Shown here piece after piece: positions 1-30,834 of a DNA stretch of 32,000 bases. A model generated the notes under the pieces. It was not told the origin of the DNA. It was given only the letters and a program-made list of their open reading frames with translations, and ran no database searches. Each line of letters opens with the position of its first letter. Position 1 is the stretch's first letter. The position numbers and the translations under genes were made by a program. Where the stretch lies: the NCBI GenBank assembly GCA_027492035.1, contig JAOZFT010000004.1, forward strand, positions 317,249 through 349,248. The letters are read 5' to 3'. The DNA comes from Thermoproteota archaeon. GTDB lineage: Archaea; Korarchaeota; JAOZGF01; JAOZFZ01.

Positions 1-64
1 CCTCTATTTTCCTGGATTCCTTAAGAATGTAATCTTCCCTTCCAGGTTCAACCTCTAAAAGCAT
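1..64 (-). CDS. 5' end of an unidentified protein-coding gene (partial, runs off the window)
   Basis: Minus-strand ATG at 64-62 opens a frame reading MLLEVEPGREDYILKESRKIE to the window edge. Too short to identify. Confidence 0.25.
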   Translation of the reverse strand, partial: MLLEVEPGREDYILKESRKIE

Positions 65-121
65 GAAAGCCTTATACATTTTTGTTCTTCTCCCTCCTCC
101 CCTTTTCTGTATCTTCTCTAT

Positions 122-420
122 TTCGCCAAGTTGGCTGTAATCCGCCTTCTATTTATAGTTGGCATTCAACTGAGCGGATTGTTCCCTTCGCTGCAAGTCC
201 TCATAAGGGCCTCCAATCCTTAGGCTTCAAGCACAGCCGTTTCACTAAATCTTACGGGGTCTTCTGGAAGTCCACTTCCTTCATCACCACCTCCCGTAAG
301 GTATATCGTTTCTGTGCTGGAGGAGGTTTCTCAACCTGTGCCTTTCGGCACCTTGAACTTGCAGACGCCGGCGGATTTCTTCAGTGCATAGACCGTAAGC
401 CAACCGCCAACTTGGCTTCC
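122..420 (-). ncRNA. rnpB: RNase P RNA (type-A-like), immediately downstream of 23S rRNA
   Basis: Read on the minus strand. Terminal helix: 406-416 pairs with 125-135 (GCCAAGUUGGC/GCCAACUUGGC). GAAGAAAUCCGCC (370-382) resembles CR-I GAGGAAAGUCC. AUAGAAGGCGGAUUAC (135-150) resembles CR-V ACAGAA..GGCUUA. AAUCCGCC and GGCGGAUU can form P4. S-domain-like GCACAGAAACGAUAUACC (300-317), then a hairpin, then UAGUGAAACGG (237-247). GC-rich in an AT-rich genome. Confidence 0.65.
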
Positions 421-441
421 AAGCAAATGCTCCTTTACGCT

Positions 442-454
<13 letters not shown>
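421..454 (-). other. 3' strand of the 23S processing helix (pairs with 3521-3553)
   Basis: agcaaatgctcc (422-433) is the exact reverse complement of ggagcatttgct (3542-3553). aggtttatgctgc (442-454) is the exact reverse complement of gcagcataaacct (3521-3533). The two segments are separated by 8-nt internal bulges on each strand, a layout typical of archaeal bulge-helix-bulge rRNA processing sites. Confidence 0.8.
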
Positions 455-3520
<3,066 letters not shown>

Positions 3521-3533
<13 letters not shown>

Positions 3534-3553
3534 ATTAACGTGGAGCATTTGCT
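3521..3553 (-). other. 5' strand of the 23S processing helix (pairs with 421-454)
   Basis: See the partner feature: 12-bp and 13-bp perfect complementary segments. Confidence 0.8.
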
Positions 3554-3682
3554 CGGCATCACAGGTTACTTTCAACCTTCGCCCTTCGCCTTAAAGAAGA
3601 GACTCTTTAAGGCTGCATCAAGGAGTAATAACAAAGAATAAACTAAAACAACTTTAATACGTGTTGTATAAGGAGAGATAGA

Positions 3683-3711: not shown

Positions 3712-5201
<1,490 letters not shown>

Positions 5202-5237: not shown

Positions 5238-5358
5238 CAGATTTAAACCGCATGGTTTAAATCCTCCTTTTCTTGTGTCCATGCGTGGATTAAGTCTTTC
5301 ATTAATCAGGTTTTCTCCTTCATTTTTCCGACTTTAACGCCACATGGACCGCCAAGCT

Positions 5359-5373
5359 TATATAAAGCCTTTT
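5359..5373 (-). promoter_or_regulatory. Candidate rRNA operon promoter (BRE/TATA)
   Basis: Minus strand reads AAAAGGC-TTTATATA (TATA = reverse complement of 5359-5366), a perfect match to the archaeal TTTAWATA box. It lies about 120 nt upstream of the 16S processing helix. Confidence 0.5.
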
Positions 5374-5399: not shown

Positions 5400-6600
5400 G
5401 GTTTTATTAATTTATTGTGAGTTAAACGAAAAATAAAAAAGCGTTGCTTCTATACCTTCGTTTCGTTGAAAACAAGCCCTGTCAGCTTAGTTTGACAATA
5501 TATCCCTTCCTTTATCAAATCCCCCAGCCTTTTTCTATTTCCAAATTAATTCCATAGCGTAAGCAGAGATTCCACCTCTAAACTGAAGTGAGGTTTCAAG
5601 AAGTTATATAGTAAAACAAATCAACCGTTTTAACCAAATTTTAGCTTAAATAAATGAACTTTGCAATTTTCTTGTAAGTATGGAAACCAATACTGTAAAA
5701 AAGAGGAGAGAAATGGTGAAGGAGTCCAATAACCCAAAAATTCCTTTTATAAGTGTATACCCCAGGCTTCTCTGAACATTTTAATCGCTTAAAAGTAAAT
5801 TAGCAAAATTTTTTGATATCTTTACTTGCAATCTGTATCCTTAAGTTGTTCTCAGCTTTTACATCCAAGCAACTACTAAATGCACCTTATACAGGCACTA
5901 GTTTCAAGTAAATGAGTTGCAAGGCTATGTTTTAACCATGAGGAGTAACCTCCTTATTTGCAGCTTTTTCAACTGTTTGTTAAATTCCTCCTTTACCGTA
6001 TTCTCAAAAATAAAACCAGTATCTGTGGATGAATGGAATGCTTACCTTCCCTCGGGTATGCAGTGATTTATTAAGGATTTAACAGCGTAGCAGTCGCCCT
6101 TACGAAACTGTTAAATTTGATAGATAAATATAATACTTGGTAAGTAAAGATGGAAAGAGAACATATTAAAGGAGGAAAATAATATGATGGCTTAGTTACT
6201 CTTCAGTTCTTCACACTTTGTTCTTCAGGTTACTTAAATGGTGGACATACAACTTCTCTAAGTTTATAACTGTTCAGGTATTTAACGATCCAATGAACAA
6301 AAGTGCTTTAGATATCTCAACCATTACAAAGGCAATCTACACCTCGTTTCGATTTTTTCTCGAGTTTTCAGGTTCCACTGGAACTCGTCATAACCGCTAT
6401 TTATTGTCTAGCAAGAAGGTAACAGAACCTACAAAGTATTTTTCAGGGAAGGTTAAAGAGTTTTAGTTTTAATTTCTGTCCTTTGTTTTCAAACGTGTCA
6501 TGTGTTATTTTTTAGGTTTATCTTTTTCAAGTCCTCCTGTTTAAAGGAGAGAAGTAAAATTTTAAAAGGTATATACATTTGTTAGGTAGTAGTTCTTAAA
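5400..6600. other. Candidate replication origin region (oriC) adjacent to orc1/cdc6
   Basis: About 1.2 kb of AT-rich DNA with no convincing ORF, between the rRNA promoter and the tRNA-Thr/tRNA-Pro/orc1 block. Contains an ORB-like dyad (6372-6384) and repeated short motifs (5450-5466 / 6337-6352; 5521-5530 / 5759-5770). Confidence 0.4.
6372..6384. repeat. ORB-like dyad GTTCCACTGGAAC
   Basis: Perfect 13-nt palindrome. The reverse strand reads GAGTTCCAGTGGAACCTGAAAACTCGAG, close to the TTCCAGTGGAAAC..GAAACTC core of origin recognition boxes described for Pyrococcus and Sulfolobus origins (recalled from memory). Confidence 0.45.
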
Positions 6601-6607
6601 AAAGGTT

Positions 6608-6706
6608 GCCGCCGTAGCTCAGCCGGTAGAGCGAGGGACTTGTAATCCCTTGGTCGAGGGTTCAAAAACCTGTGTGTTTCCCAGGTTGGGAATCCCTCCG
6701 GCGGCT
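6608..6706 (+). tRNA. tRNA-Thr(UGU) with a ~25-nt intron in the T-loop (about position 59/60)
   Basis: GCCGCCG-TA-GCTC..GAGC-G-AGGGA-CTTGTAA-TCCCT-TGGTC-GAGGG-TTCAAA[aacctgtgtgtttcccaggttggga]AT-CCCTC-CGGCGGC-T. The intron holds a 6-bp hairpin AACCTG/CAGGTT. Confidence 0.85.
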
Positions 6707-6721
6707 GTCCCTATCTCTCCA

Positions 6722-6812
6722 GGGGCCGTGGGGTAGCTAGGTCTAGCCTTCGAGACTTGGGCTCTCGAGAGTGTTCATCCGAGAAACCCCGGTTCAAATC
6801 CGGGCGGCCCCA
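6722..6812 (+). tRNA. tRNA-Pro(UGG) with ~15 extra nt between the anticodon stem and the T-stem
   Basis: GGGGCCG-TG-GGGT..GCCT-T-CGAGA-CTTGGGC-TCTCG-[AGAGTGTTCATCCGAGAAAC]-CCCGG-TTCAAAT-CCGGG-CGGCCCC-A. There are 20 nt where a 5-nt variable loop is expected. Confidence 0.8.
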
Positions 6813-6940
6813 CCTATCTTCTTTTTGTAACTCCTTTGTACTTATTAATGTATTACCGCGCTTTCCTATGGATTTTTAAACTCTACAACACCCTTTTTTA
6901 TTGTCTCCTTGAACCTTGTAACTTTTTAAAGGGGTTTTTG

Positions 6941-8125
6941 ATGTCTCTGGAAGAAGGTGTAGAGAACGTTTTTGACAGGATTCCTTTGCAATCAAGCATT
7001 TTTAAAAGAAGAGAAGTAGTTAGGTTTGACTATGTTCCTTCACAGCTTCCTTACAGGGATGCTGAGATAATGAAAATGGCACTTATCCTTTCATCTATTT
7101 TTAGAGAAGCTGTTCCCTCAAATATATTTATTTACGGAAAAACTGGGACAGGCAAAACCGCCGTTTCCATGTTTGTTAAAGATCAGTTGATAAAGAAAGC
7201 TAACCAACTTAAAAAACCTGTAATAGTGAATTACATAAATTGTAGGATAAGCGATACAAGCTATAGAATACTTACTCAGTTGACGCGTTTCTTGGACCCA
7301 AAAGTCCCCTTTATAGGTTTACCTTACGATGAAATTTATGAGAGGTTTATTTCAAAACTTGCTGAACATAACCTTTTCTTTGTTGTTTTTTTGGATGAAA
7401 TTGATCAGCTGGCTGGGAAAGGGGACGATAAAATACTGTACTCCTTAATCAGGATAAACTCTGAGCTTTCAAATGGAGGCTTAAGCATAGTTGGAATAAC
7501 TAATGATTTGAAATTTAAAGAAACTCTTGACCCAAGGATAGTAAGTGCTTTAAGTGATGAAGAAATCTTTTTTGAACCATATAATGCTGAGCAGCTCCTC
7601 CGCATCTTAAAAGACAGGGCTGAGGAAGCTTTCGTGGACGGGGCAATTGATGATTCAATTTTACAGGTAATTGCTGCATATGCTGCTAGAGAAGGAGGTG
7701 ATGCAAGAACTGCCATTGACTTGTTAAGGTTAGCTGGCGAATTAGCTGAAAGAGAAGGGGATGTTAAAGTCAAAATGAGACACGTTGAAAGGGCAAGAGT
7801 GAAAATGAAAGACGATCTGTTCTACAGAGCAATAACAACTCTTTCTCTGCAAAGTAAACTTGTTCTTTACTCTATAGCTCTGTTAACGAAAATAAATGAA
7901 GAAGTAATTACAACAGGGAAAGTTTACTCTACTTACTCCAGAATTTGTGAGAAAATCAATGTTGACAAGCTCTCCAAAAGAAGAGTTAGTGACATAATCA
8001 GGGAACTGGACATGATAGGATTAATTAGTTACAGAATCGGTCATGTGGCGCGTGGAAGAACAAAGAAAATTCATCTTGAATACAACCACAAAAAGATCTT
8101 AGAGCTGCTTAATGAGACAATTTAG
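6941..8125 (+). CDS. cdc6: Orc1/Cdc6 replication initiator (AAA+ ATPase plus winged helix)
   Basis: Walker A GKTGTGKT, Walker B FLDEID, GITND, and a C-terminal winged-helix-like region. Start moved from the TTG at 6836 to the ATG at 6941 (MSLEEGVENVFDRIPL...), which is preceded by aaagggg. The 35-aa extension has no Orc1-like character. Confidence 0.9.
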   Translation: MSLEEGVENVFDRIPLQSSIFKRREVVRFDYVPSQLPYRDAEIMKMALILSSIFREAVPSNIFIYGKTGTGKTAVSMFVKDQLIKKANQLKKPVIVNYINCRISDTSYRILTQLTRFLDPKVPFIGLPYDEIYERFISKLAEHNLFFVVFLDEIDQLAGKGDDKILYSLIRINSELSNGGLSIVGITNDLKFKETLDPRIVSALSDEEIFFEPYNAEQLLRILKDRAEEAFVDGAIDDSILQVIAAYAAREGGDARTAIDLLRLAGELAEREGDVKVKMRHVERARVKMKDDLFYRAITTLSLQSKLVLYSIALLTKINEEVITTGKVYSTYSRICEKINVDKLSKRRVSDIIRELDMIGLISYRIGHVARGRTKKIHLEYNHKKILELLNETI

Positions 8126-8157: not shown

Positions 8158-9690
8158 CTACAGGAACCTCTTCCTAAAAATTTGTTGATTACCCATGTTA
8201 ACTAGTTGCACTATTCCAGGGGTAGGGTTAATGTTCATTTCAGCTTGGTAAATTGTTTTACGTTGCCATGTTCCGGAGGCTATACATGTTATCCCATTCA
8301 CTCTCTTCTCTCCATTTATGTGTAGATGTCCCGTTTGCACAATGTCAGGAGGGTCCTCTATCAAATGAAAATCAAAACTTTCAGGAGCTAATGGTACATT
8401 AGAGCCGTAAAGAGGAGATAAGTGCCGGCTTATTAACATTTCATGAATAGCTTCCTCCGGCTTATTCCTTTTTCTTCTGGGTAAAACTGTGTTCCAATCC
8501 TCCAAACTCTTTCCGTGGTAAATAAGTACTTTATAACCGTCAATTACTACTCTTGAAGGGTTACCTAAAGAATATATTCGTCTCTCCTCCTTTAAAGGTT
8601 CGATGTAGTGGTGAATAATTGATGGTTGAGGTTCAGAAAGCCTAGTAGCGTCGTGGTTCCCAGGAACAAAAATTATATCCAAGTAATTAGGCACTTTCTT
8701 CATATATTTTATGAAAAGGTCATACTGCTTACCTATATCCCTCTCCATTAATTCATTTTCTTGCCCAGGGTAAACACCCACTCCATCCACTAAATCCCCA
8801 GCAATTATTAAATATTTGATTTTAGAAACAATCCTTTTCTCTTTTTCGTTTCCCCTTTTCAGATTTAACCATTCTAAAAATTTTTGAAATTCTTTCTGAA
8901 GAAACGCTTTGCTTCCTATGTGTAGATCAGAAATAAAGGCCATATAAATTTCCCTCTCAAAAGTTTTCGGTTTGGTTCTAGGAGGCCCTGGAAAATAAAT
9001 TACTTCAGCATTCAACACCCCCTTCTTCCATACCCTACCCTTAACCCCTATCACTTGGTCAGGTATAATATGTGCTGCCTCAGCCATGTTCTTGTTTACT
9101 ATGACTTTAATTGAACCAGTTAAATCTTCAAGTTCCAAGATATAGTTCCCTTTTAGGCTCTTCCTTTTTGAAAAAACCATTCCCACAATGGTTACTTGTT
9201 TTCTCTCCTGTGAGCTGTATTTCTGTATGTCTTCTATGTCTTCAACTTCTCTCCCTTCAATTTTAGACTCAATTATTTTTCTTAACCTAATGTATCTGTT
9301 AATAAATAACCGAATAAAATCTGTTATTTTCTCTCCTCGGTTTATGTACCTACTTGGGTCAAGCTCAACCTCTATTTTCCCATCCCAATCCTTAGCAGTC
9401 TCTTCTTGCAAAAAACCTTCAGGTAAAAATGTTTCAATTTCCTCTCTACCCTTTTCTTTCCTTTCTTCTCTGTTTTCCTTCTTCAAAAGGTTTAGAATCT
9501 TTTCCACCAGTTCTATCTTAACCACTACACCCCTACTCTGCGACTCCTGCAGTTTTTCTATGAAGAAATCAATTATAGACTTTAGGTTCATTTCGGAAAA
9601 ATTTTTTAGGAGAGGTAATGCTTCAGAAGGGAGTAAGTACCCTTTTTCAGCAGTTTTAGCAAGTAATTCCTTGATCTCTTTGTTTTGCAT
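8158..9690 (-). CDS. DNA polymerase D (PolD) small subunit DP1
   Basis: Calcineurin-like phosphoesterase motifs DLHIGS, GDLVDG, GNHD, GHLH. An OB-like region precedes them (VTIVGMV...VKGRV). Start set to the ATG at 9690 (MQNKEIKELL) because the longer ORF overlaps tRNA-Leu. Confidence 0.9.
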   Translation of the reverse strand: MQNKEIKELLAKTAEKGYLLPSEALPLLKNFSEMNLKSIIDFFIEKLQESQSRGVVVKIELVEKILNLLKKENREERKEKGREEIETFLPEGFLQEETAKDWDGKIEVELDPSRYINRGEKITDFIRLFINRYIRLRKIIESKIEGREVEDIEDIQKYSSQERKQVTIVGMVFSKRKSLKGNYILELEDLTGSIKVIVNKNMAEAAHIIPDQVIGVKGRVWKKGVLNAEVIYFPGPPRTKPKTFEREIYMAFISDLHIGSKAFLQKEFQKFLEWLNLKRGNEKEKRIVSKIKYLIIAGDLVDGVGVYPGQENELMERDIGKQYDLFIKYMKKVPNYLDIIFVPGNHDATRLSEPQPSIIHHYIEPLKEERRIYSLGNPSRVVIDGYKVLIYHGKSLEDWNTVLPRRKRNKPEEAIHEMLISRHLSPLYGSNVPLAPESFDFHLIEDPPDIVQTGHLHINGEKRVNGITCIASGTWQRKTIYQAEMNINPTPGIVQLVNMGNQQIFRKRFL

Positions 9691-9725
9691 TTCTTTTTCC
9701 GCTTTCCTCTGTTTAAAAGAGCTTA

Positions 9726-9818
9726 TGCGGGGGGAGGGATTTGAACCCTCGCAGGACTGAACCACCAGATCTCTAATCCTTGAGTCTGGCGCCTTTAACC
9801 TGGCTCGGCAACCCCCGC
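9726..9818 (-). tRNA. tRNA-Leu(CAA), class II, with an 8-nt insertion after the anticodon loop
   Basis: Reverse complement: GCGGGGG-TT-GCC..GGC-G-CCAGA-CTCAAGG-[ATTAGAGA]-TCTGG-TGGTTCAGTCCTGC-GAGGG-TTCAAAT-CCCTC-CCCCCGC-A. Long variable arm and A73. Confidence 0.75.
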
Positions 9819-12957: not shown

Positions 12958-13051
<94 letters not shown>

Positions 13052-17044: not shown

Positions 17045-17142
17045 AGCCCTGGGAGGGATTCGAACCCTCGGCCTGCTGCTTTCTAGTTCGTTACGAGGAT
17101 CGGCTTCTTGAATCAGCCGCTCTACCGCTAAGCTACCAGGGC
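17045..17142 (-). tRNA. tRNA-Thr(CGU) with two insertions flanking the anticodon loop (15 nt at ~30/31, 11 nt at 38/39)
   Basis: Reverse complement: GCCCTGG-TA-GCTT-AGCGGTA-GAGC-G-GCTG[attcaagaagccgat]C-CTCGTAA-[cgaactagaaa]GCAGC-AGGCC-GAGGG-TTCGAAT-CCCTC-CCAGGGC-T. This gives a perfect GCUGC/GCAGC stem. U73 and the T-arm match the tRNA-Thr(UGU) at 6608. Any single-intron parse gives only class-II anticodons on a class-I body. Confidence 0.65.
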
Positions 17143-22788: not shown

Positions 22789-22921
22789 GGTGGGGTTAAC
22801 GGCCATAGAAGCTAAGGAAACACCTGATCCCATTCCGAACTCAGAAGTTAAGCTTAGCTTCGTTTACTTCGGTACTGCGCTCCGAGAGGGCGTGGGAAAA
22901 AGTAAAGCTGTTAACCCCACC
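22789..22921 (+). rRNA. 5S ribosomal RNA (unlinked to the 16S-23S operon)
   Basis: 12-bp terminal helix GGTGGGGTTAAC/GTTAACCCCACC. Conserved ACACCTGATCCCATTCCGAACTCAGAAGTTAAGC and GTACTGCGCTCCGAGAGGGCGTGGGAA. Confidence 0.9.
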
Positions 22922-25602: not shown

Positions 25603-26094
25603 TTGAAAAAAACTAAAAACGAAGAAATTGAGGAGTTGCTTGAGTTCCTTCAGGAACTAAGGGAAGAAATAGTTGGGAAACAAGTTGTAATGGTAGTGGA
25701 AGGTAAAAAGGATAAGTTGTCTTTTGAAGAGATAGGGTTTAAAGGAACCTATCTATTAACAAACGGCTCCTTCCACCGAACCAATTACCTCATGGAAAAG
25801 TACATAGAGAAGGGGTTCTCTTTCCTCATCCTTTCAGACTTTGATGAAGAGGGGGAGAAAATAAAAGAGGAAGTGATCAATTACATTGATTCCAGAGCTG
25901 AAGTAAGATTAGACCTGAGAAGAAAACTTAAGAAAGTAATTTTAAACGCAAAGGCTCCCTGTACAATAGAGTCCCTCTCCAACTGGTTAATTAAAAGAAG
26001 GGTTGGTGGAAGAAGCGAAGGAGGTAAAGGAACAAATAAAGGTGATGTTTATGAACGAGTCATTTTCTACGGTGAAGTATGTAGCCAAATTTAA
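25603..26094 (+). CDS. Small stand-alone Toprim-domain protein (RNase M5 / small primase-like)
   Basis: Toprim signature VMVVEGKKD ... LILSDFDEEGEKI. TTG is the first start-like codon after the in-frame stop at 25591-25593. The 3' end overlaps dnaG by about 44 nt. Confidence 0.6.
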   Translation: MKKTKNEEIEELLEFLQELREEIVGKQVVMVVEGKKDKLSFEEIGFKGTYLLTNGSFHRTNYLMEKYIEKGFSFLILSDFDEEGEKIKEEVINYIDSRAEVRLDLRRKLKKVILNAKAPCTIESLSNWLIKRRVGGRSEGGKGTNKGDVYERVIFYGEVCSQI

Positions 26095-27241
26095 CCTTAA
26101 CGTTAACGGTGTAGTTGAAAAACCAGACGTTGTAGGAGCTATTTTTGGACAGCTTGAAGGGTTCCTAGGTAGGGAATTAGACTTAAGAGAGCTTCAAAGA
26201 ACAGGAAGAATAGGCAGAATCGATGTTTTCCTACAGTCGAAAGGAGGAAAAACGAAAGGAACAATAGTTATACCCTCAAGTCTGGGAAAAACAGAAACAG
26301 CTATAATTGCAGCTGCAGTTGAAATGGTGGACAAAATAGGTCCATGTCTGGCTCAAATAAAACTTGAAGAAATAGTGGATGTGAGGCAAGAAAAGAAGAA
26401 CCTAATCAAAAAAAGAGCAATAGAAATTCTTGAACAATGGGAGAAAAAGGAAAAGGTGAAAATTGAAAATTTACTTCAAGAAATAGAGGACTCAATAAGG
26501 ACACGTGAAATAATTTCTTATGGACCTGAAAAACTCCCTGCAGGACCAGACATAGAAAACTCGAACGAAATAATAGTGGTTGAAGGAAGAGCAGACGTAA
26601 TAAACCTTCTTAAACACGGGATAAGGAACACTGTAGCAGTGGAAGGAACAAGTATACCGAAAACGGTTCAAGAAATCACTAAGAGGAAGAGAACAACTGC
26701 TTTTCTCGATGGAGATAGAGGAGGAGAACTTATACTGAAAGAACTTCTTCAAGTGGCAAGTGTAGACTACGTAGCTTTCGCTCCTCCAGGAAAAATGGTT
26801 GAAGAATTATCAGAGAAAGAAATAATTTCATGTTTGAAAAACAGGATCCCAATTGACCAGTACCTAAAACAAAAGGGGAAGACTCAGCTTAAAGCCTTAA
26901 CAGAGAAACGTTTTAAAGGAGGCAAACCTACACATTTAAATAAATTAATAGAGAAGACAGTGGGAACCTTTAAACTCTTCTGTTTAAATAAAAACTTCCA
27001 CATTTTAAAAGAAATCCCTATAGAACCTGATGAAATAGAGAAAGCTGTAAATGAAACAAAACCAGCAGCAATATTTATCGACGGAATAATTACCCAAAGA
27101 TTAGTTAATTTAGCGGCGCAAAACAGTGTAAAACTTGTTGCAGGGGTCAAGAAAGGGGACTTAACAAAAATCCCCTACCCCCTAAAAATATACACCTTTG
27201 ATGAAATAGTGTCAAGAAATTTAGACCTAAAACTTGAGTGA
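26051..27241 (+). CDS. dnaG: Archaeal DnaG-type primase / exosome-associated Toprim protein
   Basis: The N-terminus KYVAKFNLNVNGVVEKPDVVGAIFGQLEGFLGRELDLRELQRTGRIGRI is the hallmark archaeal DnaG N-domain. Toprim motifs IIVVEGRADV and FLDGDRGGELI. The ATG at 26051 sits 7 nt after AAGGTG. ATG 26045 is an alternative start. Confidence 0.9.
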   Translation: MNESFSTVKYVAKFNLNVNGVVEKPDVVGAIFGQLEGFLGRELDLRELQRTGRIGRIDVFLQSKGGKTKGTIVIPSSLGKTETAIIAAAVEMVDKIGPCLAQIKLEEIVDVRQEKKNLIKKRAIEILEQWEKKEKVKIENLLQEIEDSIRTREIISYGPEKLPAGPDIENSNEIIVVEGRADVINLLKHGIRNTVAVEGTSIPKTVQEITKRKRTTAFLDGDRGGELILKELLQVASVDYVAFAPPGKMVEELSEKEIISCLKNRIPIDQYLKQKGKTQLKALTEKRFKGGKPTHLNKLIEKTVGTFKLFCLNKNFHILKEIPIEPDEIEKAVNETKPAAIFIDGIITQRLVNLAAQNSVKLVAGVKKGDLTKIPYPLKIYTFDEIVSRNLDLKLE

Positions 27242-30420: not shown

Positions 30421-30746
30421 GTGGAGAGACAGGGGATAGGTAGGGGGCTCGGGGTCCCCTGAACCGTAAACCCTCGAAACGACGGGCCGAATGCTGCTGC
30501 GGTGAATCCTTCGCCTGTACAAAGCATCAGCTTAGGAGAAATGAAAACAGTCACCCTTGGGGGCAGCGGAGCTAACCCAGTTTCCGGAGGGAAACAAAAG
30601 GGTTAGTTGAGCTGAGGGGAAAAAGCCAGGCCTGGAAAGGAGCAACTTAAACCCTCTAACGCTGCCGCTCAAGGGAGAGGCTGCAGATCTCCAAGTTGAT
30701 GCCGAGTGCAGCTGAAGGTTTTGCTGCAGTAGAATCCCCTGCTCCA
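30421..30746 (+). ncRNA. Signal recognition particle RNA (archaeal 7S RNA)
   Basis: Helix-8 core CCAGGCCUGGAAAGGAGCAAC (30626-30646; compare AGGUCCGGAAGGAAGCAGC). Alu-domain-like GGGGGCUCGGGGUCCCCUGAACCGUAAACC (30443-30472). Closing helix: GGAG..CAGGGGAU (30423-30437) pairs with AUCCCCUG-CUCC (30734-30745). A GC-rich ~325-nt island. Confidence 0.8.
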
Positions 30747-30749
30747 AAA

Positions 30750-30834
30750 GCCGGGGTACTCCAGCCAGGTAGGAGGCGGGCCTGCTAAGCCCGTGGCTCT
30801 TGGAGCCTCGTGGGTTCAAATCCCACCCCCGGCG
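30750..30834 (+). tRNA. tRNA-Ser(GCU), class II, uninterrupted
   Basis: GCCGGGG-TA-CTCC..GGAG-G-CGGGC-CTGCTAA-GCCCG-TGGCTCTTGGAGCCTC-GTGGG-TTCAAAT-CCCAC-CCCCGGC-G. Confidence 0.9.

Follow-up and report, generated by a model that had tools for sequence, protein, structure and literature searches.

The 32,000-nucleotide (nt) stretch of DNA analysed here (the window; positions 317,249 to 349,248 of contig JAOZFT010000004.1, assembly GCA_027492035.1) comes from what is most likely a marine lineage of Korarchaeota and carries, on its minus strand, a gene of RNase P RNA next to the genes of 16S and 23S rRNA. We consider it likely that in this lineage the 16S-23S transcription unit has the RNase P RNA gene as its distal RNA cistron, co-transcribed with the rRNA genes. 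Co-transcription is favoured because the RNA is joined tightly to the bulge-helix-bulge (BHB) stem from which 23S rRNA is processed, because promoter and terminator signals are lacking at the junction, because the arrangement is conserved in related genomes, and because a precedent has been published for Methanococcus maripaludis. The RNA itself has a P4 helix without the bulged uridine; this loss, as judged from an alignment of three genomes, is real and maintained in this korarchaeal lineage.

The identity of the RNA is firm. A first, sequence-only reading of the stretch had taken it for RNase P RNA and proposed a covariance-model search as the check. The archaeal model RNaseP_arch (RF00373) matches positions 415-126 of the minus strand over its full length (model positions 1-288) with 151.8 bits and E = 2.8e-43, the gathering score being 84, and this is the single RNase P match that Rfam gives within the window. 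The main features of the locus are the following:

5359-5366, minus strand: likely promoter box TTTATATA of the whole rRNA transcription unit, read from the sequence, about 160 nt upstream of 16S
3713-5201, minus strand: 16S rRNA (Rfam SSU_rRNA_archaea, full model, 1507.8 bits)
3520-3556, minus strand: 5' strand of the 23S stem, with outer helix 3556-3542, central helix 3541-3538, bulge UAA 3537-3535 and inner helix 3534-3520 (RNAcofold)
448-3530, minus strand: 23S rRNA (Rfam LSU_rRNA_archaea, full model, 2821.9 bits)
419-455, minus strand: 3' strand of the 23S stem, with inner helix 455-441, central helix 440-437, bulge AAA 436-434 and outer helix 433-419 (RNAcofold)
417-418, minus strand: linker AA that joins the terminal pair of the stem to the opening pair of P1
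125-416, minus strand: RNase P RNA, archaeal type A-like (the Rfam match 415-126 and the P1 pair G416-C125)

The 23S-RNase P junction and its transcription signals

On the minus strand Rfam thus gives the order 16S, 23S and RNase P RNA, after which comes a small open reading frame (ORF) of the AsnC type. The 16S-23S spacer of the window contains no tRNA according to Rfam, and 5S rRNA is located outside the operon, 22 kb away and on the opposite strand (22795-22916, plus strand). The RNase P match starts 32 nt past the end of 23S (448), and this spacer is almost entirely occupied by the processing stem. The flanks of 23S co-fold at -66.6 kcal/mol (RNAcofold) into a canonical BHB motif, which has two opposite 3-nt bulges (UAA and AAA), a central 4-bp helix (ACGU/GCGU) and helices of 15 bp on either side; folding of the 16S flanks yields a long processing stem as well. 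The sequence-only reading had placed the RNA against the 23S processing helix, and this is indeed its position: the 3' strand of the stem ends at 419, P1 starts at 416, and only the AA linker lies between them (a single C in the relative L029, introduced below). The same reading supposed that the RNA is released by the very BHB cleavage which excises pre-23S; in this it has to be corrected, as the AAA bulge at 436-434, where cleavage by EndA is expected from the BHB model, lies 18-20 nt upstream of P1. A cut at this site would therefore make a second maturation step necessary for the RNase P RNA.

As to the promoters, the interval from -55 to -15 upstream of each RNA gene was scored by its best match to TTTAWATA (of 8 positions) and by its longest A/T run. 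The interval upstream of the RNase P RNA gene gives 4/8 and an A/T run of 5 in the window, and 3-4/8 with runs of 3-5 over the three korarchaeal genomes compared. The stand-alone RNA genes of the window (those of signal recognition particle (SRP) RNA, 5S and several tRNAs) reach 6-7/8 with runs of 8-16, and over the three genomes most of such genes give 6-8/8 (5/8 for a few tRNAs of L029) with A/T runs that are mostly much longer. The score of RNase P equals that of genes lying inside transcripts, namely 23S, tRNA-Ser behind SRP RNA and tRNA-Pro behind a tRNA-like gene. No TATA-like element is present within 55 nt upstream of RNase P in the relative L030, none at the right distance in L029, and the weak A/T patches found upstream of it do not keep their position among the three genomes. 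The sole A/T patch upstream of RNase P in the window, CAUAAACC, is part of helix 1 of 23S. Upstream of 16S, TTTATATA at 5366-5359 is the sole strong TATA box on the minus strand, and by its sequence and position it likely drives the whole rRNA transcription unit. The terminator side agrees with this picture: no run of at least four T occurs between 23S and RNase P in the window, and no run of at least five T occurs on the minus strand from the 16S promoter until just past the 77-amino acid (aa) ORF. The earlier observation that no TATA box separates 23S from the RNase P RNA gene is thus borne out and is extended to signals of the terminator type.

The synteny check proposed together with that observation was made possible by the PAC2 gene beyond RNase P, through which two relatives were found: L029 (JAOZFZ, GCA_027491945.1) and L030 (JAOZFL, GCA_027491455.1). 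Proteins of the window are identical to those in GCA_027491775.1 (JAOZGG) and GCA_027491625.1 (JAOZGO), and the closest other genomes are GCA_027491945.1 (JAOZFZ), GCA_027491455.1 (JAOZFL) and GCA_027492105.1 (JAOZFU). The lineages JAOZFZ01, JAOZFL01, JAOZGF01 and those related to them are deep-branching Korarchaeota from marine hydrothermal vents according to a paper of 2026 (PMC12787533). Judged by the series of accessions and by its 16S identity of 90% to JAOZFZ, the window most likely belongs to such a marine korarchaeote. The blocks in the two relatives are as follows:

L029: 16S 16138-14659, 23S 14441-11381, RNase P RNA 11348-11070 (159 bits), AsnC-type ORF, convergent PAC2
L030: 3' part of 23S up to 10894, RNase P RNA 10857-10548 (137.2 bits), AsnC-type ORF, PAC2

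The junction of 23S with RNase P is kept in both relatives on the same strand, with spacers of 32 nt in the window, 32 nt in L029 and 36 nt in L030. L029 is 90.1% identical to the window in 16S, 86.6% in 23S and 77% in RNase P RNA, the latter value being 72% for L030, and preservation of the junction in two genomes that have diverged by 10-14% in rRNA strengthens the case for co-transcription. The stem of L029 is unrelated to that of the window in sequence and still forms a perfect BHB (central helix GGCG/CGCC, bulges AAA and ACU, -79.4 kcal/mol), P1 beginning 1 nt past it; the stem sequence of L030 differs from that of the window too, and the BHB was checked in L029 alone, because the contig of L030 lacks the 5' strand. 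Since the block of 16S, 23S, rnpB and the AsnC-type ORF beside convergent PAC2 is kept, whereas the genes upstream of 16S differ among the genomes, the operon travels as one block with the RNase P RNA gene and the small ORF. Other routes to relatives were tried and gave none: the Orc1 homologues L024 and L025 (64-65% identical) have no rRNA as a neighbour, so that synteny on the orc1 side was of no use; a protein query with a spurious ORF of 204 aa, which lies antisense to RNase P and to the 23S 3' end, returned three contigs of the same species only; and the distant PAC2 homologues P0133 and P0131 stand in unrelated contexts of euryarchaeal type with no rRNA nearby.

If the RNase P RNA is made in this way, its maturation could proceed in the following steps. 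RNA polymerase would start at the 16S promoter, transcribe 16S, 23S and RNase P RNA in turn and perhaps continue into the AsnC-type ORF, and EndA would cut the two BHB motifs and thereby excise pre-16S and pre-23S. The RNase P RNA would remain on the 3' trailer and keep some 17-19 nt of additional sequence at its 5' end, which belong to the 3' strand of the outer helix; by composition this remnant is the 15-nt strand, the remainder of the bulge and the 2-nt linker. In other archaea the flanks are joined by ligation of the RtcB type after the excision of pre-23S. Should such ligation occur here, the extension would be closed with the spacer into a 15-bp hairpin, and in the fold of the predicted ligated product this hairpin stands 2 nt from P1. 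A second step would trim the RNA to the base of P1, with P1 acting as the stop, either through an endonucleolytic cut in the linker of 1-2 nt or through a 5'-3' exonuclease. Read-through from 23S, the steps ascribed to EndA and RtcB, the trimming enzyme and the coupling of dosage are all what we infer. The arrangement would tie the supply of the ribozyme that matures tRNAs to rRNA transcription, which raises the question of how an output of 1:1 is reduced, and the nearly direct fusion of P1 to the BHB stem poses a problem of its own, that is, how a paired 5' extension of 17-19 nt is removed and whether RtcB ligation comes first.

Several considerations weigh against this proposal. First of all, it is from sequence alone that we infer co-transcription, and the comparison covers three species-level genomes of one lineage. 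An RNase P RNA equimolar with rRNA looks wasteful, which argues for partial termination or rapid decay. The maturation step supposed to take place in the linker is put forward here with no enzyme assigned to it. The flanks of RNase P were not found to pair in a BHB-like manner: a second BHB around the RNase P RNA itself, formed between the RNase P trailer and the spacer that precedes the stem, was considered and rejected, as the gain from this pairing is only about 2 kcal/mol and is not conserved. Cleavage at an A/U-rich motif, as in M. maripaludis, was likewise rejected, as none of the three genomes has the motif HDNNW|HUDHH at either boundary (5' or 3') of RNase P, and its matches in the region are fewer than in shuffled sequence. 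Finally, archaeal promoters can be weak or atypical, and a promoter within the 3' end of 23S is possible, with CATAAACC at about -34 to -27 as the candidate.

The last point leads to the explanation that the RNase P RNA is transcribed separately, from a weak or atypical promoter of its own overlapping the 3' end of 23S and the stem, the short spacing being due to genome compaction. We regard this as unlikely, yet it has to be taken seriously, since in three loci of the DPANN type the same adjacency of 23S and rnpB is accompanied by TATA-like elements in the spacer, and adjacency as such consequently does not imply co-transcription. In the window, too, the short A/T patch CATAAACC (450-443) stands about as far upstream as a promoter would. 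However, this patch matches TTTAWATA at 3-4 positions of 8 and lies in helix 1 of 23S, with UUUAUG of the 23S 5' end as its partner; in L029 its counterpart is found at about -19 to -15, and L030 lacks it. Moreover, no oligo-T run would halt the polymerase coming from 23S, so that read-through would be expected even if such a promoter existed.

The RNase P RNA and its P4 helix

The structural elements named in the sequence-only reading are almost all where it put them. P1 pairs 406-416 with 125-135, from G416-C125 through C406-G135; the CR-I-like GAAGAAAUCCGCC occupies 382-370, and P4 is formed by 377-370 of CR-I with 146-139 of CR-V. The CR-V-like AUAGAAGGCGGAUUAC is present, but at 152-137 and not at 150-135, that is, 2 nt away. 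The S-domain-like sequences GCACAGAAACGAUAUACC and UAGUGAAACGG were both found, and the RNA has the S-domain motifs ACAGAAACGA and GUGAAACGG, as in archaeal type A. On the whole, it shares with the archaeal type A RNase P RNA (RF00373) the full-length match, P1-P4, CR-I to CR-V and the motifs of the S-domain. Another korarchaeal rnpB is that of Korarchaeum cryptofilum (NC_010482.1, 603218-603511; PMC7191817).

The pair G416-C125, with which we extend the Rfam match, is invariant in L029 and L030, and the CR-II/CR-III cores CACAGAAACGA and UGAAACGGC, which recognise the tRNA elbow, are invariant in all three genomes. Covariation was tested in an alignment of the three sequences (window, L029 and L030) with the Rfam structure supplemented by P4 and with 500 shuffles. 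Standard pairs are formed in 93.7% of the cells; compensatory double changes are seen in 21 of the 75 pairs, a count that none of the 500 shuffles matched, and sliding the partners by 1-3 columns reduces the pairing to 27-42%. The pairing, the compensatory changes and the invariant CR-II/CR-III cores indicate, at the level of the sequence, that the structure is under selection and that we deal with a maintained RNase P RNA and not with a relic.

The unusual part of the molecule is P4, whose strands are:

370-377, minus strand: P4 5' strand AAUCCGCC, inside CR-I, without a bulged uridine, in continuous pairing with 146-139
139-146, minus strand: P4 3' strand GGCGGAUU, inside CR-V (three-genome alignment)

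The helix is continuous and has 8 bp, each of the eight pairs being formed in each of the three genomes (24 of 24 cells), and the bulged P4 uridine is absent from all three korarchaeal RNAs of the alignment. In the canonical P4 the pairs A-U, A-U and G-C are followed by the bulged U and then by further pairs, whereas in the korarchaeal helix a single pair, U-A in the window and in L029 and C-G in L030, takes the place of the usual G-C pair together with the bulge. In terms of sequence, CR-I of archaeal type A (RF00373) reads GAGGAAAGUCC, and the korarchaeal one GAAGAAA-UCC. The DPANN loci L007, L009 and L022/L023, by contrast, have a P4 with the normal GAGGAAAGUCC and the bulged U. Two of the P4 pairs show compensatory changes among the window, L029 and L030: the one just named and another, which varies from C-G to U-A. 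As compensatory changes keep P4 paired in all three, the loss of the bulge is real and is a maintained property of this lineage. The bulged uridine (U69 in Escherichia coli, U52 in Thermotoga maritima) has been described as universally conserved and as coordinating the catalytic metal M1, and its mutation or deletion lowers activity about 10-fold or more (PMC3488217). A selected P4 without the bulge therefore bears on whether the "universal" catalytic uridine is truly indispensable.

Taken together with the junction, these data allow a more far-reaching version of the proposal, which we put forward as tentative: that the korarchaeal clade has a single RNase P RNA, which forms the 3'-terminal cistron of its rRNA transcript, receives its 5' end by way of the 23S BHB and EndA (possibly with RtcB), and works as a ribozyme without the P4 uridine. 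If true, this would mean a naturally rewired active site of RNase P in an RNA whose production is firmly tied to that of ribosomes and which may pass through a form ligated to remnants of the spacer. Very improbable, in our opinion, is the supposition that the 5' processing of tRNAs has been taken over by another enzyme and that the RNA has shifted to the processing of pre-rRNA, after the manner of the eukaryotic RNase MRP.

We also give very little credence to a non-working locus, i.e., to a decaying copy or an assembly chimera, the real RNase P (with an RNA or as the protein-only HARP) being encoded elsewhere. Such a possibility is suggested by the P4 helix devoid of the M1-binding bulged uridine, conserved universally (PMC3488217), and by the scope of the search for a second copy, which covered the 32 kb and a few contigs only. 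A chimera is hard to reconcile with the identical junction-spanning ORF on three contigs, of which the two readable ones belong to two separate assemblies of the same species, and with the presence of the junction in two other genera. Decay, in turn, is contradicted by the clear structural selection described above (93.7% of cells paired, 21 compensatory pairs, invariant CR-II/CR-III), and retention of the bulge-less state by means of compensatory changes is unlike decay.

The AsnC-type ORF and other features of the window

Downstream of the RNase P RNA gene, and partly inside it, the following two features were noted:

1-79, minus strand: start of an ORF of 77 aa with the ligand-binding domain only of the AsnC/Lrp type (ATG at 79-77, preceded by GGAGG), running off the window
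150-157, minus strand: TATAAATA, located within the RNase P RNA gene towards its 3' end, identical in L029 and replaced by TTAGAATA in L030

The ORF starts 45 nt past RNase P in the window and 25-45 nt past it across the three genomes, with no terminator between. Its full form is found in L027 (9998-9765, Pfam AsnC_trans_reg), in L029 (11033-10788) and in L030 (about 10522-10273), and the first run of five T on the minus strand follows directly after its stop codon. Thus, the ORF may be a part of the rRNA/RNase P transcript, or may be driven by TATAAATA, which, judging by its letters, is either a possible internal promoter of that ORF or plain RNase P sequence. That the co-transcribed unit serves mainly as the mRNA of this ORF, or as a regulatory link between it and rRNA, the RNase P RNA being an incidental passenger, fits the constant position of the 77-aa ORF in all three genomes, the absence of oligo-T before it and the first five-T run behind it; nevertheless, we hold it to be highly improbable, as TATAAATA at 157-150 could drive the ORF independently and the RNase P RNA is essential itself, so that this reading and co-transcription of the RNase P RNA with rRNA are not mutually exclusive.

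In the 23S rRNA, the 3' region has an insertion of about 50 nt (window about 610-561, minus strand) and 8 extra nt near 500, compared with the Rfam archaeal model. The sarcin-ricin loop (window 741-728, minus strand) reads AGUACGAAAGGAAC and has a GAAA tetraloop in place of the usual GAGA, which amounts to an A at the equivalent of E. coli G2661. The GAAA loop is shared by all the korarchaeal genomes compared, L029 (about 11673) and L030 (about 11185) included, and by the Pacearchaeota locus L009 (about 5269).

Among the other small RNA genes, SRP RNA (30428-30743, plus strand) is followed after 6 nt by tRNA-Ser (30750-30834, plus strand), which has no TATA box. The two are probably co-transcribed, in which case the RNase P cut at the tRNA would help to set the 3' end of SRP RNA. 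tRNA-Pro at 6722 begins 48 nt past an Rfam tRNA match (6615-6673, plus strand) and likewise lacks its own TATA box. Three Rfam tRNA matches were not called by ARAGORN (17045-17142, minus strand; 6615-6673 and 12981-13043, plus strand); one of them is long and probably contains an intron, and two are partial (model positions 8-63, about 31 bits).

The element TTAAAGGAGGAAAAT / TTTAAATCCTCCTTT occurs in four copies and in both orientations (5255-5270, 5979-6005, 6157-6185 and 6541-6560) in the region that separates the rRNA operon from orc1 (6836-8125), beside which the gene of the PolD small subunit is located (8158-9765). One possibility is that a replication origin lies here and that these copies are its origin-recognition boxes. 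Further on, two adjacent and overlapping ORFs of the plus strand (25603-26094 and 26003-27241; 163 and about 396 aa in L001) each contain a Toprim domain of the DnaG type and could be a split or frameshifted gene of DnaG primase.

Comparison with known systems

The sequence-only reading was unaware of any described archaeal rRNA operon that has RNase P RNA in the distal position. Such an operon has in fact been published: rrnC of M. maripaludis has the order 16S-tRNAAla-23S-5S-rnpB, its rnpB shares the promoter of the rRNAs, with which it is transcribed, the RNase P RNA is freed endonucleolytically at mapped sites 3 and 6 nt past 5S, and terminal stems have been proposed to act as rulers or roadblocks (PMC10515664). 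The korarchaeal locus resembles rrnC in that RNase P RNA is the last in the rRNA operon, that 16S and 23S have BHBs of the kind cut by EndA, and that additional processing is called for to separate the RNase P RNA. It differs in the junction: in M. maripaludis rnpB comes after 5S, and a 10-nt A/U-rich motif located 3-6 nt past 5S is the site of its release, whereas the korarchaeal operon has neither 5S nor tRNA, the motif is absent, and P1 stands 1-2 nt past the BHB stem. The taxonomic setting is different as well, since in Methanococcus (Methanococcales) rnpB belongs to one of three operons, and the present case is from Korarchaeota.

Further examples were looked for in species-representative genomes by means of a pattern linking the 3' end of 23S to CR-I, a scan which was not exhaustive and returned mainly chance bacterial matches; L029 matches the pattern and was not returned, so it is evidently outside the scanned collection. 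Metagenomes were scanned with a tighter pattern, limited to spacers of up to about 45 nt. The genome scan revealed two DPANN genomes with rnpB right after 23S, L007 (Woesearchaeota) and L009 (Pacearchaeota), and the metagenome scan a third locus of the DPANN type, L022/L023. Their RNase P RNAs are:

L007, 5381-5681: 164.8 bits
L009, 5541-5838: 61 bits, E = 5.6e-16, below the Rfam threshold
L022, 8063-8327
L023, 657-393

As in the korarchaeal locus, the RNase P RNA follows 23S on the same strand; in the DPANN loci the distance is 39-66 nt. In contrast to that locus, the DPANN spacers are A/T-rich and contain TATA-like elements, TTTATAAA in L007, TTTATATT in L009 (7/8) and the weaker TTTATTCA in L022 (6/8); in L007 and L009 the TATA-like box is situated about 24-34 nt upstream of RNase P, and in L007 the 23S 3' end also contains seven consecutive T. 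The boxes in the spacers make it plausible that the DPANN rnpB genes are transcribed separately. The 23S gene of L009 also carries a group I intron. The position of rnpB next to the 3' end of 23S is thus recurrent in archaea.

Non-ribosomal RNAs are linked to archaeal rRNA operons in another form too: in Methanothermus and the Methanobacteriales the genes of 7S (SRP) RNA and tRNASer are linked to such operons, a structural RNA being transcribed together with rRNA or tRNA genes, but they are located upstream and not behind 23S. The pair of SRP RNA and tRNA-Ser in the window is comparable in this respect. The operon arrangement as such, therefore, has precedent, and what is new here is the promoter-less fusion 1-2 nt from the BHB stem, kept across the korarchaeal clade, and the P4 helix without the bulge. 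Provided that co-transcription takes place as we propose, the korarchaeal locus would be a second, independent case of RNase P RNA appended to an archaeal rRNA operon, belonging to a TACK-related lineage besides Methanococcus and having a different junction.

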